A DNA stretch of 64,000 nucleotides. Origin: a virus. Both the position numbers and the translations under genes were made by a program. The stretch spans positions 7,041 through 71,040 of IMG/VR virus record IMGVR_UViG_3300028581_000036. One strand, given 5' to 3'. This document shows positions 8,125 to 12,159 of this stretch, one piece after another; position 1 is the first letter of the stretch, and every line of letters starts with the position of its first letter. Under the pieces are notes generated by a model. That model was given only the letters and a program-made list of their open reading frames with translations. It was not told the origin of the DNA and searched no databases.

Positions 8125-8224
8125 ATTTAGTATAAATGGTTATAGATAGCAAAAAACCCTCAATGACGCAAAACCGCTGTTACCTGCTGGGCGGTTTATC
8201 AGTAGGAACTTTAAAAGAAACAAA

Positions 8225-8587
8225 ATGAGTTTAGATGTTTATTTAACACGAAAAAAATGGATTAGCTACGATGCTGGCAAAACATTAACAGAAGAAGAAG
8301 AAACTGTTTACGATGCAAACATTACCCATAACTTAGGTAAAATGGCACGTGAAGCAGGAATTTATGAAGCACTTTGGCGACCAGAAGAAATTGGCAAAAC
8401 AAAGGCGAGTGAAATAGTTGAATTGCTTGAAAAAGGATTAGCTGATTTAAAAGCAAGACCTGAACATTTTGAAAAATTCAACTCGCCTAACGTATGGGGA
8501 ATGTATGAACATTTTGTTCCTTTTGTCGAAAAGTATTTAGAAGCCTGTAAAGAATATCCTGATGCTATTATCGGAGTGTCAAGGTAG
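8225..8587 (+). CDS. cassette gene, hypothetical protein
   Basis: 120 aa (ANITHNLGKMA...); bracketed by GTTACCTGC 8179 and GCAGGTAAC 8592. Confidence 0.85.
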   Translation: MSLDVYLTRKKWISYDAGKTLTEEEETVYDANITHNLGKMAREAGIYEALWRPEEIGKTKASEIVELLEKGLADLKARPEHFEKFNSPNVWGMYEHFVPFVEKYLEACKEYPDAIIGVSR

Positions 8588-8597
8588 CCTTGCAGGT

Positions 8598-8683
8598 AAC
8601 GATTGGGTGTATGAGAAGGTTTGCTTTGATGAATTTTCAAATTACCACTACTGCTGATAGCAAACTTTCTTATACACCTTGTT
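8598..8683 (+). repeat. attC-like hairpin 1
   Basis: AAC-GATTG-GGTGTATGAGAAGGTTTGCT ... AGCAAACTTTCTTATACACC-TT-GTT. Confidence 0.85.
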
Positions 8684-8800
8684 ATACACAGTACGGTTTA
8701 TTAAGGTAGAATGTTGATTTGAAACACGAATAAAAACTTTTTAAAAATGTGCGGTGGAAAATTTAATTCTGAATATTTATATATACAAATAAACTTTAAT

Positions 8801-9139
8801 ATGAAAAAGGAACTTAAACATTTGAAAACATTTGAACAGAACACAGATAAAAACTTGAATATATCTGGTGTTATACAACGGAATTTGTTATTATCAAAAT
8901 CTGATATTGAATACTTACGAAGTGTCGGATTTACACAAGATAATTCAAAAAATTCTGGTCTTTATTATTATGAAGATGATAATAAAACTAAGGTAATTGT
9001 ACCACAAGAAGATGGTACATATAAATTAGAATTTTATGAATGGTGTGATGATGGTGATGGTAATTATTACGAAGATTTTGATAAGGAATATAGTAAAAAA
9101 GGACAAACATTACAACAATTTATAGAAGATTGGATTTAA
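8801..9139 (+). CDS. cassette gene, acidic hypothetical protein; first 23 codons lie upstream of the GTT core at 8870
   Basis: ATG 8801 after A-rich leader; GTTATACAAC 8870 and GTTGTATAAC 9144. Confidence 0.75.
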   Translation: MKKELKHLKTFEQNTDKNLNISGVIQRNLLLSKSDIEYLRSVGFTQDNSKNSGLYYYEDDNKTKVIVPQEDGTYKLEFYEWCDDGDGNYYEDFDKEYSKKGQTLQQFIEDWI

Positions 9140-9150
9140 TTATGTTGTAT

Positions 9151-9236
9151 AACGGTTGCAAATATATGTAGGTTTTTTGTAACAAATGCTTAAAATTTAC
9201 GTATAACTTAATAAAAACTTACATATATTTGTTGTT
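9151..9236 (+). repeat. attC-like hairpin 2
   Basis: AAC-GGTTG-CAAATATATGTAGGTTTTT ... AAAAACTTACATATATTTG-TT-GTT. Confidence 0.85.
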
Positions 9237-9295
9237 ATGTGTATGTATTTTAATTTTTTGTGCGTGGGAAATATTAACTTAAAAATAGAAATAAA

Positions 9296-9505
9296 ATGGA
9301 AAAATTTATTGAAGTAAACGGAAACTGGTTGTTTAGTGATGAACATTTTTTATTGACTGAACGAGGTTGGCTAAAGGCAAAAGAACTACAAAATGGTGAT
9401 AAAGTTATTGGGGTGAAAGGAGAATCGACAATAAAAAATATTATAGAATGTGGAGAACGACCAGATGCACCGATTATTGGTGAAACAGGTGCGGTGGGAA
9501 ATTAA
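9296..9505 (+). CDS. cassette gene, minimal Hint/intein-like fragment
   Basis: SDEHFLLTERGWLKAKELQNGDKVI resembles Hint block B; ends in Asn; bracketed by GTTATGTGTA 9234 and TACACATAAC 9511. Confidence 0.65.
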   Translation: MEKFIEVNGNWLFSDEHFLLTERGWLKAKELQNGDKVIGVKGESTIKNIIECGERPDAPIIGETGAVGN

Positions 9506-9517
9506 AATATTACACAT

Positions 9518-9641
9518 AACGTGTTTGCGCTTGGCGCAGTGGTGGACTTCGGAGTGAAAAACTTTCAAGTTACCACCAAAGCCGATGCAAGGCACGATGT
9601 TGAATTAACCACTAAACCCGCCATTGAGCCAAACGCATGTT
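9518..9641 (+). repeat. attC-like hairpin 3
   Basis: AAC-GTGTT-TGCGCTTGGCGCAGTGGTGG ... CCGCCATTGAGCCAAACGCA-T-GTT. Confidence 0.85.
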
Positions 9642-9711
9642 AGGCGATGGCACGGTTAAATTAGTAGAAACTTAAAAACCTTGTGGTGTAAAGGCGAACC
9701 GCATATATAAA

Positions 9712-10320
9712 ATGACAAATACACAAAAATTTGCAAAGCAAGAGTTGGATATTCTTGCAGCAACAGTTCCAGATGCGATTGTAACACCATTCGCTAAAGA
9801 AATCTTAGCTTTATGTGAAGCATTTGGTAAATCAGGACAAAGTGGTGGTTCAGCACCATACACAGCATCAGCCATTGCACAATCGGTAAAAAAATTGTGC
9901 TTACAAGAGCCTATTTGTGATGTAACAGGACACGATAATGAGTGGGTTGATGTTGCCGAGTGGATGGGTGAACCAATGTATCAAAATGCAAGATGTGGCG
10001 GATTGTTTAAATACCAAAACGGGAAATGTAGCTATAATGATGCTATTGTTTGGAAAGGAGAAGAAGAACACGACACATTCACAGGCAGAGTTTACATTGA
10101 CGATAAGGATTTTGAACTGATTGGAAGTAGCCAATATGCAAGATTTCCATTTAAACCAAAAACATTTTATATTGACGTGGTTCGTGTTCCGATTACAAAA
10201 GATGATGCGGAAAAAAGAGGGATGCATTACATTGAGGATGGTTTTGGAGAATGTTACTACACGGTATTGAAAGACCCTAAACAACTTGAAAAGGTTTTTA
10301 AATACTATGACAAAAAGTAA
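9712..10320 (+). CDS. cassette gene, hypothetical protein (FxxxGQSGGSA motif)
   Basis: 202 aa; bracketed by GTTAGGCGA 9639 and TCGCCTAAC 10364. Confidence 0.85.
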   Translation: MTNTQKFAKQELDILAATVPDAIVTPFAKEILALCEAFGKSGQSGGSAPYTASAIAQSVKKLCLQEPICDVTGHDNEWVDVAEWMGEPMYQNARCGGLFKYQNGKCSYNDAIVWKGEEEHDTFTGRVYIDDKDFELIGSSQYARFPFKPKTFYIDVVRVPITKDDAEKRGMHYIEDGFGECYYTVLKDPKQLEKVFKYYDKK

Positions 10321-10369
10321 TTTAACGGGCAGGCACTATCGGATTAGCAGTTCGGTAGTGCTTTCGCCT

Positions 10370-10491
10370 AACGGTCGCAGGTATATTTAGTGCCTGATTA
10401 AATAGTAGAAACTTTCAAAATAGTAGAGAATATGAAAAATAAACAAATGTTAAAAACTGCGCAGAAACAGGCATTAAATATACCTGTTGTT
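10370..10491 (+). repeat. attC-like hairpin 4 (loop holds start codon of next gene)
   Basis: AAC-GGTCG-CAGGTATATTTAGTGCCTG ... CAGGCATTAAATATACCTG-TT-GTT; ATG 10432 in loop. Confidence 0.9.
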
Positions 10492-10722
10492 ATAGGTAGT
10501 GCTTTTGTTTCAATTTTTGATAGATTCGGGGTTACTTGTTACAATGAACACGACACTATTGACGATGCGATTAAATCATTAGAATACGGAAGTGATGAAG
10601 GTTTAATTATGGATATTGCTGTGATTGAAACAAAGACTAAACAAATGGTATGGTATCAAAAGTTTTTAGGTAAACATGAATGTAAAGCAAAGGTAGATAT
10701 GTTTGTTCAGCATTACCTATAA
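10432..10722 (+). CDS. cassette gene, hypothetical protein
   Basis: Stop TAA lies inside TACCTATAAC 10714, complementary to GTTATAGGTA 10489. Confidence 0.8.
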   Translation: MKNKQMLKTAQKQALNIPVVIGSAFVSIFDRFGVTCYNEHDTIDDAIKSLEYGSDEGLIMDIAVIETKTKQMVWYQKFLGKHECKAKVDMFVQHYL

Positions 10723-10805
10723 CGTCTGGCAATATATGTAGTTGCCATGTAGAAACTTAACAAATTAGTATAAACCTTAATGGGCAATTACATATATTGC
10801 TTGTT
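10721..10805 (+). repeat. attC-like hairpin 5
   Basis: AAC-GTCTG-GCAATATATGTAGTTGCC ... GGCAATTACATATATTGC-TT-GTT. Confidence 0.9.
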
Positions 10806-10821
10806 AGCAAACGTAATTATT

Positions 10822-11016
10822 ATGGCAAAAAGTTTAGAAAAAGAACCAATGATTATACCAAACGAATATGATGGATTATGGTCGGCATATTATGTTGAAA
10901 TTATATTCCACAACGGGAATAAATCACATCCAATTAAATTAGATGAAGGTGTTCGTGGGATAAACTGCAAATGTAAGGTAACTGTTGATGAGGATGGTTG
11001 GCTTTATGTTTGCTAA
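10822..11016 (+). CDS. cassette gene, hypothetical protein (alternative in-frame start 10780 inside hairpin)
   Basis: GTTAGCAAAC 10803 and GTTTGCTAAC 11008; stop inside TAAC. Confidence 0.75.
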   Translation: MAKSLEKEPMIIPNEYDGLWSAYYVEIIFHNGNKSHPIKLDEGVRGINCKCKVTVDEDGWLYVC

Positions 11017-11137
11017 CGGAAAAGTATTGGCGATGTTGCCAATTTGAAAAACAAATGTTCAAAATTTAAACAAAAGTTGATATGAAAATTGAAGTTAAAA
11101 TAACCGATGAAGCTGGCAATTTTGCCAATACCGTGTT
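11015..11137 (+). repeat. attC-like hairpin 6 (loop holds start codon of next gene)
   Basis: AAC-GGAAAA-GTATTGGCGATGTTGCCA ... TGGCAATTTTGCCAATAC-CGT-GTT; ATG 11082 in loop. Confidence 0.85.
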
Positions 11138-11405
11138 AGGTGCAGTTTATTTTTTCCCAAATTATATGATAGAACACATAATTGAACTATCACAAGAATA
11201 TAAAGAAATTGTTTCATTATCAGATATTGAAAAGTTTAAAAGCATTGCAACCGCTTACGATGAAACTTATATTAGCCAATTGATTTCAAACTGCGTCAAT
11301 TGGACAATGAAAAAAGATTGGGATGATAAATACTACCAAAAATTAAAAAGAGATGAAATTAAAACACTTGAAAGAGTAAAGTATCGGGTCAAACGTGGTC
11401 GCTAA
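11082..11405 (+). CDS. cassette gene, hypothetical protein
   Basis: GTTAGGTGCA 11135 and TGCACCTAAC 11408. Confidence 0.75.
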   Translation: MKIEVKITDEAGNFANTVLGAVYFFPNYMIEHIIELSQEYKEIVSLSDIEKFKSIATAYDETYISQLISNCVNWTMKKDWDDKYYQKLKRDEIKTLERVKYRVKRGR

Positions 11406-11469
11406 ATTGCACCTAACTATTATATATAAACAACTCTATGCAACTGACTGATTATTAATACTTTATAAC

Positions 11470-11682
11470 ATGAAAAAGACTGACTATTACAAAATCTGTG
11501 AACAAAAATTGAAGAACTTCAAACTGCAGCAGGCCATGAACCGCTTATGAGTGTTATCCCGACTAAGAATAGGTATCACCTGATTACTAGGCCTTTTAAT
11601 ATTAAACTATTAGAGCCATTGATGTACAGTGGGGCCGTTGTTCGATATTCACAAGGATAATCCAACTGTTCTTTATTTATAG
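11470..11682 (+). pseudogene. frameshifted remnant of a phage hypothetical gene
   Basis: IPTKNRYHLITRPFN and DIHKDNPTVLY segments occur in different frames; pattern recalled from phage proteins, not searched. Confidence 0.45.
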
Positions 11683-11733: not shown

Positions 11734-12150
11734 ATGACAGACAATAAAATTAAAATTTATTTAGACGACGTTAGAACCCCGGTTGAAAAGAATTGGGTTG
11801 TCGTAAGAAGCTATGATGAGTTCATAGCCAAAGTAAATGAAATTGGTTTAGAAAATATCGATTTTATTTCATTAGACCATGATCTAGGCGACTCAGCAAT
11901 GAAGGAATGGCATAAAAATGTGTATCACAACTATACATTAGACTACAACAGCATTACTGAGAAAACAGGCTATGATTGTGCTAAATGGTTGGTTGAACAG
12001 TGGATGGAAGGACAATCTGTTGTTGATGTGTACACCCATTCAGCAAATGCTATTGGCAGTGCAAACATCATGGGCTACATCAACAATTTCAGACACATAA
12101 ATCACTTACCGCAAAATTGTGTTAGAGTACAAATAGAACACACGGTATAA
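11734..12150 (+). CDS. cyclic-phosphate-processing receiver-like domain protein
   Basis: YLDDVR, ISLDHDLG, TGYDCAKWL, HSAN motifs. Confidence 0.75.
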   Translation: MTDNKIKIYLDDVRTPVEKNWVVVRSYDEFIAKVNEIGLENIDFISLDHDLGDSAMKEWHKNVYHNYTLDYNSITEKTGYDCAKWLVEQWMEGQSVVDVYTHSANAIGSANIMGYINNFRHINHLPQNCVRVQIEHTV

Positions 12151-12159
12151 TAGTAAAAC

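Follow-up and report, generated by a model that had tools for sequence, protein, structure and literature searches.

Integrons are regarded as bacterial, and recently also archaeal, devices defined by the integrase IntI and by attC sites following the genes. In classical integrons the bottom strand of the site folds, IntI cuts at 5'-AA/C and attC lies after its gene. The IntI-specific additional domain is thought to read the extrahelical bases of attC, and in sedentary chromosomal integrons families of sites are common to unrelated cassettes. Other systems, such as the CTX-type integrative mobile elements exploiting Xer (IMEX) and the pdif modules, use the host Xer recombinases and the chromosomal dif site; we know of no arrays of hairpin-led cassettes beside a recombinase of their own among them. 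We describe here an array of six hairpins, S1 to S6, each placed ahead of a small open reading frame (ORF), in a 64,000-nucleotide (nt) stretch of viral DNA. This stretch, called the window below, corresponds to bases 7041-71040 of the 71,040-base IMG/VR virus record IMGVR_UViG_3300028581_000036, whose completeness is rated 26%; positions are those of the window and all features lie on its + strand. The region is likely to be a decayed copy of a phage-borne, integron-like cassette platform.

In T4-type phages, promoter-stem-loop (PeSL) cassettes have reportedly been a subject of work by Comeau et al. in 2014. Gene gain, loss and replacement at these stem-loop modules, which lie between small ORFs, were described by Arbiol et al. 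(2010, PMC2839356). The second related case is that of the clusters of attC sites lacking integron integrases (CALINs): Qi et al. (2023, PMC9892861) applied IntegronFinder and HattCI+Infernal to 10,705 phage genomes and reported 17 CALINs. One of them belongs to the Polaribacter phage P12002L, in which two predicted attC sites among methyltransferase genes run "in divergent directions", and IntI1 recombined the P12002L_attC2 site through its bottom strand, the top strand giving no recombinants (PMC9892861). In a full-text literature search, we found neither the recombinase of the system presented here nor its polarity or distribution described.

The six imperfect hairpins of the window occupy positions 8597-11138 and fall into a short class (S1, 8597-8684; S2, 9150-9237; S5, 10720-10806) and a long class (S3, 9517-9642; S4, 10369-10492; S6, 11014-11138). 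They share one architecture, always on the coding strand: 5'-TAAC-G-NNN(bulge)-stem-loop-stem-T-GTTA-3', with a stem of 12-20 pairs and the G following AAC paired with the T preceding GTT. The specificity resides in the full geometry, the bare pattern TAACG-N40-70-GTTA being found 12 times in the window for 13.8 expected, without enrichment, and an ungapped comparison of the arms failed to detect the sites owing to the bulge. A detector built on the full geometry was run on 129 related phage loci (1.15 Mb; individual loci are designated below as L001, L084 and so on) and gave 511 hairpins on the dominant strand versus 92 on the other. These 92 represent the background rate and, therefore, about one fifth of the 511 may be false. 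Hairpin lengths in the same loci peak at 46, 85-88 and 121-125 nt, which define the mini, short and long classes. RNAalifold analysis of 29 dissimilar long hairpins predicted 25 pairs, 18 of which undergo double changes that retain the pairing. The imperfect palindrome, the AAC...GTT foot, the unpaired spacer and the variable centre that characterize an attC-type site are thus all present in the consensus, the covariation and the length classes.

An earlier note on this DNA had extended several stems outwards. This part of its description has to be dropped: pairing beyond TAAC/GTTA was no better with the real partners than with shuffled ones (for example 0.52 vs 0.48 and 0.78 vs 0.79), and an outer stem was rejected as a structure. 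The lack of outward pairing fits a boundary at AAC, with the upstream tail belonging to the preceding cassette. Within hairpins that are otherwise 90-100% identical, the bulge bases +4 to +6 after AAC are less conserved (identity 0.60, 0.80 and 0.85), which could reflect a relaxed constraint or an overlap region exchanged with the partner site.

The same note had stated that the stem mismatches are entirely G-T on the + strand at S1, S2, S4 and S5 and that the coding strand folds best. Both statements hold. At these four sites every non-Watson-Crick pair of the inner stem is a G·T on the + strand, with two or three per site and no A·C. Among 34 distinct hairpins (the S4 family being counted once), the first 14 stem pairs read on the coding strand contain 82 G·T versus 6 A·C, as scored with a detector that treats both alike and is symmetric for transitions. 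Two stem positions are each G·U in 28 of the 29 long hairpins aligned above. Folding of both strands with DNA parameters favours the + strand at five of the six sites, the energies for the + and − strands being -15.4/-12.6, -12.6/-10.2, -15.0/-12.7, -15.1/-12.3 and -16.2/-13.8 kcal/mol, an advantage of 2.4-2.9 kcal/mol. At S3 the strands are equal (-18.0/-18.5 kcal/mol) and the z-score is only -1.1; the + strand z-scores of the other sites range from -6.5 to -2.8. Selection for folding acts on the coding strand, either as DNA or as RNA.

Which ORF belongs to which hairpin was determined by comparing the flanks of hairpin pairs located in different loci and with ≥85% identity across ≥80% of their length, 30 pairs without a 100-nt flank being dropped. 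That the unit is a hairpin followed by its ORF had been proposed in advance, together with this comparison as its test, and the outcome supports it: 40 pairs share the downstream flank only and none the upstream flank only, 55 share both and 192 neither. The 55 pairs sharing both flanks come from the same or syntenic phages, and the 40 downstream-only pairs fall in about 15 families and are not independent. A nucleotide clustering of cassettes flanked by two hairpins had yielded mostly same-phage duplicates (41 pairs, about 6 informative) and was replaced by this comparison.

The junctions were then located on the pairs with a common downstream flank. Identity is 1.0 at AACG and reaches the background level 3-4 nt upstream, except for a consensus T at -1 and a T at -8, and in 10 independent families the shared stretch starts at AAC and ends at the next (T)AAC(G). 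The Cellulophaga phages phi13:2 and phi19:3 have in common, at 99% identity, a 371-nt unit (L001 4002-4372) that extends from an AACG start to a TAACGG end and is surrounded by unrelated DNA on either side. In L024, L028, L031 and L042, a common unit opens with CATAACG, closes with CAACTAAC; what comes next is DNA without a hairpin in L024 and a different hairpin in each of the other three loci. Upstream of AAC stands a semi-conserved tail of 11-12 nt, ATTRYNNMTAA, whose TAA is often a stop codon and whose T at -8 is present in 311 of 320 cases. A cassette unit made of the hairpin, the downstream ORF and the tail is supported by these observations. The crossover had been assigned by the earlier note to AA/C just after each stop codon; the junctions do lie at AAC, and the exact cut can be placed only within T-A-A-C.

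In the relatives, the array adjoins a recombinase gene of the Xer/IntI clade (265-270 residues, co-oriented), of which the window holds a remnant only. One such case is L084, which carries two copies of a 394-nt cassette, 100% identical, the second of them closing the array at the terminal site. This copy is followed by TAAC-TATAATATAT and, 36 nt further on, by an ORF coding for a recombinase of 269 residues. The profiles matched by this protein are XerA_Arch (3.2e-49), the integron integrase TIGR02249 (1.3e-44), XerD and XerC; the TIGR02249 match, in two stretches, reaches 153 bits and stays under the cut-off of 265. Its closest solved relatives by sequence are two archaeal XerA proteins and then VchIntIA, and the RHR-H-Y motif regions are visible in the alignments with them. 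In the alignment with VchIntIA, the blocks 19-179/16-180 and 213-268/261-316 are separated by 33 residues opposite 80, so that about 47 residues of the region carrying the IntI-specific additional domain are missing. The protein family is large (7,740 of the 8,000 scored candidates at E ≤0.001); the best 120 candidates are 67-100% identical and their source name, where any is given, is XerD.

In 11 of the 129 loci, which had been selected by their hairpins, the last cassette has a homologue of this recombinase behind it on the same strand, and each of these 11 genes is preceded by ATT.....TAAC TATTATATAT, a terminal-site consensus derived from 16 arrays. The reciprocal search, the stronger test of the two, started from the recombinase: 216 viral contigs encode a relative, 80 loci were kept and 48 of these have at least 3 kb upstream, some phages being represented by several loci. 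In 47 of the 48 loci the 3 kb upstream of the recombinase contain a TAACG-type hairpin on the same strand, in 40 of them two or more; the total is 185, with none on the opposite strand. Downstream, the 3 kb available in 43 loci contain only 3 hairpins. The terminal motif lies within 200 nt of the recombinase in 37 of the 48. The conserved TAAC-TATTATATAT between the last cassette and the recombinase is thus placed like an attI site, and in addition to the duplication into that position, one cassette is internal in L082 and terminal, adjoining TATTATATAT, in L093.

In the window, the last cassette ends in ...CACCTAAC (11410-11417) with no hairpin after it, as the earlier note had it. The attI-like end of the array consists of TAAC (11414-11417) followed by TATTATATATAAAC (11418-11431), and a 26-codon remnant of the recombinase gene, MKKTDYYKICEQKLK..., occupies 11470-11550. 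Of its first 15 residues, 14 are identical to those at the N-terminus of the L059 enzyme (E 4.5e-8 in a small search), and 56 nt are 86% identical. No other recombinase-like or PF00589 match was found on the 71-kb contig of the window. As the recombinase gene is reduced to 26 codons, the array of the window is probably no longer autonomous.

The resemblance to integrons covers the array of single-ORF cassettes, the imperfect hairpins with an AAC/GTT foot, an unpaired spacer and a variable loop, the preference for one folding strand, the exchange in AAC at the 5' foot of the folded strand and the presence of a simple conserved site beside a tyrosine recombinase of the Xer/IntI clade. Hairpin families also recur with unrelated cassettes, like the site families of sedentary chromosomal integrons. 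In contrast to integrons, the folded strand is the coding strand and the site lies ahead of the ORF, the recombinase is encoded at the 3' end of the array in the same orientation, the 5' arm carries a 3-nt bulge and the stem fixed G·T wobbles, the hairpin often encodes an N-terminus and the whole is phage-borne. The recombinase, with about 269 residues, also differs by the missing IntI-specific region and by its score below the integron-integrase cut-off. Both the IntI-specific domain and an attC placed 3' of its ORF with a bottom-strand fold were looked for and found absent (40 vs 0 in the flank comparison and 82 G·T vs 6 A·C for the strand), and for this reason the system is placed beside integrons and not among them. 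The recombinase is closest to single-Xer enzymes (XerA), and the folded strand could mimic a duplex core site of Xer systems.

With six sites and no intact recombinase on 71 kb, the window might also be taken for an ordinary bacterial CALIN fragment of classical polarity, folded on its bottom strand and acted upon by a host IntI. The AAC/GTT foot agrees with the R-box consensus, and a phage of the same host class has been reported to carry a CALIN, one site of which was recombined by IntI1 (PMC9892861). This explanation is very improbable. The sites differ from classical attC in polarity, the hairpin never moves with the upstream ORF (0 of 40), the coding strand is the folding one, the associated recombinase is devoid of the IntI-specific region and the pattern of the S4 arms was found in only 6 stretches, all on contigs of metagenome-assembled genomes (MAGs), among bacterial genomes representing 185,579 species (one per species). 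In P12002L, hairpins of the present family lie on the gene strand between the methyltransferase genes and the array ends in ...GCCTAAC. Methylases are also the commonest recognizable cargo of the cassettes studied here. The two accounts differ in that Qi et al. treat the sites as integron components read by the bacterial IntI1, and the part of their report used here describes no cognate phage recombinase, hairpin-first polarity, start codons in loops or wide distribution (PMC9892861).

Several hairpins also supply the start codon of the gene that follows. The ATG codons at 10432 (S4 loop) and 11082 (S6 loop) open frames that extend across the right arm and GTT, as the earlier note had proposed, and end at the next TAAC. 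The ATG at 10780, named with them, does lie in frame where the loop of S5 meets the arm, yet translation probably starts elsewhere; 10822 is likelier because starts in the short class normally lie 15-45 nt past GTT (16 nt for 10822). When a start inside the hairpin was defined as an internal ATG opening an ORF of at least 40 codons past GTT, it was found in 108 of 230 distinct long hairpins, 7 of 73 short ones and 0 of 21 mini ones. The internal ATGs of the long class are mostly located 50-79 nt after AAC. In the remaining hairpins the start lies within 120 nt downstream, typically 15-45 nt after GTT in the short class (61 of 73 downstream). All 15 members of the S4 family encode MKK...QALNIPVV from the loop and the right arm. 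The claim that the site doubles as leader and coding sequence consequently stands for the 108 long hairpins, S4 and S6 included, and fails for the short ones.

These starts, together with the conserved G·U-type wobbles on the coding strand and an orientation that is always that of the genes, are compatible with a purely RNA-level element, in which an mRNA structure would present the start codon in an A-rich loop or stabilize the cistron and the position of the junctions would be a by-product. Such an element accounts neither for the invariance of the AAC/GTT foot and the conservation of the tail ahead of AAC nor for the terminal TAAC-TATTATATAT site, the association with the recombinase gene and the precise duplication of a cassette. 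No Rfam family matches the hairpins: the sole match to the Rfam 15 covariance models, at 11540-11573, is below threshold (18.4 bits vs a gathering score of 35) and due to chance. We therefore give an exclusively RNA-level function little credence, and a role of the RNA could coexist with that of the DNA.

Another explanation is that the hairpins are PeSL-like regulatory modules shuffled by homologous or microhomology recombination without any dedicated site-specific enzyme. The present array has in common with the PeSL cassettes that conserved stem-loops separate small non-essential ORFs within the hyperplastic regions of lytic phages, and the T4-type phages offer the precedent (PMC2839356). 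Hairpin families recur before unrelated ORFs (the 192 pairs sharing neither flank), some junctions fall at start codons and in conserved leaders, and an adjacent recombinase is absent from most arrays. Nevertheless, a PeSL is a promoter plus a terminator recombining by homology (PMC2839356), whereas here the junction is specific for AAC, the unit is directional, a dedicated recombinase is present and no signal of sigma-70 promoters or terminators emerged, Bacteroidota-type promoters being outside the scan. The strong sigma-70 promoter and terminator stem-loop typical of PeSLs are accordingly missing by the same counts: 24 sigma-70-type promoters vs 19.6 +/- 4.8 expected and 2 terminators vs 2.0. 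Moreover, the 40-to-0 asymmetry is unexpected for exchange inside a symmetric module, one unit is followed by four different sequences, non-hairpin DNA included, after exactly TAAC, and the linkage to the recombinase and to the conserved terminal site is tight. PeSL-like modules are thus an unlikely explanation of the array.

The integron-like platform that we favour would operate as follows. On the coding strand, each cassette consists, from 5' to 3', of an attC-like hairpin with a covarying stem, one small ORF and a tail, the site reading 5'-(T)AAC-G-[3-nt bulge]-covarying stem with fixed G·T wobbles-variable loop-stem-T-GTT(A). Translation of the ORF begins inside the loop, and continues via the right arm, in about half of the long hairpins. 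In intact relatives the array ends at the conserved TAAC-TATTATATAT, a site of the double-strand type, followed by the co-oriented recombinase. This enzyme would recognize the hairpin folded from the coding strand and exchange strands within T-A-A-C at its 5' foot; cassettes would be excised as hairpin plus ORF and re-inserted at the recombinase-proximal site, from which it would follow that the array grows at its 3' end. Growth at that end had been suggested by the earlier note, and the terminal site, the recombinase and the duplicate of L084 found there agree with it. What the sequences show directly is the architecture, the covariation, the asymmetry of the strands, the positions of the junctions, the linkage with the recombinase and the duplication of one cassette into the last position. 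We infer the direction of growth itself, as well as catalysis by the recombinase, the single-stranded DNA substrate and the exact cut.

A number of observations weigh against this scheme. The G·T wobbles and the start codons in loops fit a role of the RNA at least as well as one of the DNA, and many of the pair counts are not independent, the same phage having been sampled repeatedly. A second class of junctions is found at or near the start codon in about 8 families, and some exchanges among Baltivirus phages took place within a conserved leader and not at AAC; homologous exchange therefore also shuffles these regions. Among the hairpin-selected arrays with at least 2.5 kb downstream, only 7 of 37 have the recombinase, PF00589 matches are entirely absent from one contig whose completeness is rated 100%, and the arrays of Cellulophaga Baltivirus phages abut a different tyrosine recombinase. 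Finally, the Logan contigs of four lake metagenome runs (X9-X12) gave no clean excision joint: contigs break at hairpins and the sole joint, from 9318 to 11219, is poor (side 22, 27 foreign letters), so that these contigs speak neither for excision nor against it.

Taken with these reservations, the data lean moderately towards the broader view that aquatic phages, whose named relatives infect Flavobacteriia, possess an integron analogue of their own. It would comprise a compact Xer-type recombinase without the IntI insertion, shuffling anti-defence cassettes in which a coding-strand hairpin ahead of the gene serves as leader and N-terminal coding sequence. The data suggest that integrons have a widespread counterpart among viruses in which the cassette polarity is reversed, one generic pattern of the long hairpin being found in at least 118 viral stretches and the recombinase in the 216 viral contigs mentioned above. 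The cargo is enriched in orphan DNA methylases and in inhibitors of Thoeris and of restriction. If active, the system would allow rapid exchange of anti-defence genes among unrelated phages, provide a natural test of the attC features essential to folded-strand recombination and offer a tractable system for the unsolved question of cassette birth; junctions between module and ORF that are precise to the start codon could expose how cassettes are made. With it, viruses would either have solved the integron problem a second time or carry a sister lineage informative about the origin of integrons from Xer. We expect standard integron finders to miss such arrays.

The recombinase of the Cellulophaga Baltivirus arrays was considered as an Xer/IntI-type enzyme and rejected as such; it is of the Phage_int_SAM_5 type and no action on the hairpins is claimed for it. 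In these Cellulophaga phages the array meets a conserved block exactly at TAAC-AATGTTATATAAC (L001 7498-7560, L003 6713, L004 5721, L005 5291). The block contains a 78-residue ORF and the 418-residue Phage_int_SAM_5 tyrosine recombinase, and TAAC-AATGTTATATAAC resembles the TAAC-TATTATATAT site despite the different type of recombinase. A second decayed platform was noticed in L029 (5936-6175, oriented), where TAAC-AATTATATAT is followed by an open frame of 79 residues corresponding to the N-terminal portion of the recombinase; an intact PF00589 gene is present elsewhere on the contig.

At the 5' edge of the window array, ahead of ORF 8225, a half site AAAACCGCTGTTACC (8170-8184) resembles the right-arm consensus and has no left arm; the earlier note had read it in the same way. 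Cassette 0 (8225-8600) contains the ORF 8225-8587 (120 residues, phrog_4019) and a cassette-type tail, TAGCCTTGCAGGTAAC. S1 is 94% identical to a hairpin of L084 and L132, the shared flank being the downstream leader only. The ORF of cassette 1 (8801-9139, 112 residues) begins 117 nt after S1. The leader between them (8685-8800, 115 nt) is conserved: it is 81% identical to a leader of L084, where the ORF beyond is unrelated; a leader of the S1 type shared by unrelated ORFs points to a junction of the second class, located at the start codon or close to it. The motif TGTGCGGTGGGAAAT occurs three times, at 8748-8762 and 9259-9272, in the leaders after short hairpins, and at 9489-9502, at the end of ORF 9296-9505; a similar motif, TTTGGGGTGGA, is present in the conserved S1-type leader of L084. 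In runs X9-X11 the contig depth over the S1 region (8527-8687) is 89, 43 and 41 versus about 4-8 in the flanks (about 6-12 times); loose contig ends lead into other cassettes, and the same hairpin families are multi-copy in lake communities.

The ORF of cassette 2 (9296-9505, 69 residues) gives a weak match to Hint/pretoxin-HINT (PT-HINT) domains (E 0.0028, 18.4 bits, below the cut-off); part of a domain of the intein or Hint type may be encoded here. S3 has a branched interior and no start codon inside; it precedes cassette 3 (9712-10320, 202 residues), which encodes a Tad3-like Thoeris inhibitor (PF25185, E 3.6e-23, 82 bits vs a cut-off of 27). The following 46-nt interval between two AAC triplets (10324-10369) has no ORF; with its small hairpin (GCACTATCG / CGGTAGTGC), it could represent a mini-class cassette that is empty or degenerate. 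S4, whose right arm encodes ...QALNIPVV, is 82% identical to its counterpart in the Cellulophaga phage phi13:2, and the pattern of its arms is found in 14 IMG/VR contigs. The ORF of cassette 4 (10432-10722, 96 residues) ends with a TAA that is also the TAA of the next TAAC. Cassette 5 encodes 64 residues (10822-11016, from the likelier of the two in-frame starts) and cassette 6, which begins in the S6 loop, 107 residues (11082-11405) followed by the tail ATTGCACCTAAC.

The cargo was surveyed on 150 distinct cassette proteins, namely 4 from the window and 146 of the 189 distinct ones from the other loci. At least 124 of the 150 have no Pfam match. DNA methyltransferases, with 16 proteins, are the commonest recognizable cargo; Tad3, a Tad2-like protein, Lar, a dATP/dGTP diphosphohydrolase and a MazG-like protein are represented by single members.

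The genes around the array are all on the + strand. Neither such hairpins nor a nucleotide match to the array are present in 15 relatives of the window phage, which were identified by means of the phosphoesterase encoded nearby and gave no junction information; the array is therefore an accessory island. The window stretch is contained wholly or partly in 20 lake or freshwater sequencing runs. The nearest named relative is Flavobacterium phage vB_FspM_immuto (69.7% identity across 17% of a 6.1-kb query); the second named match of the window, to Cellulophaga phages, is limited to one short stretch. The first gene past the array remnant (11734-12150) encodes a protein with a cREC_REC (cyclic-phosphate processing receiver) domain (PF20274, 3.5e-23), and the match to vB_FspM_immuto spans this gene and reaches position 12151.

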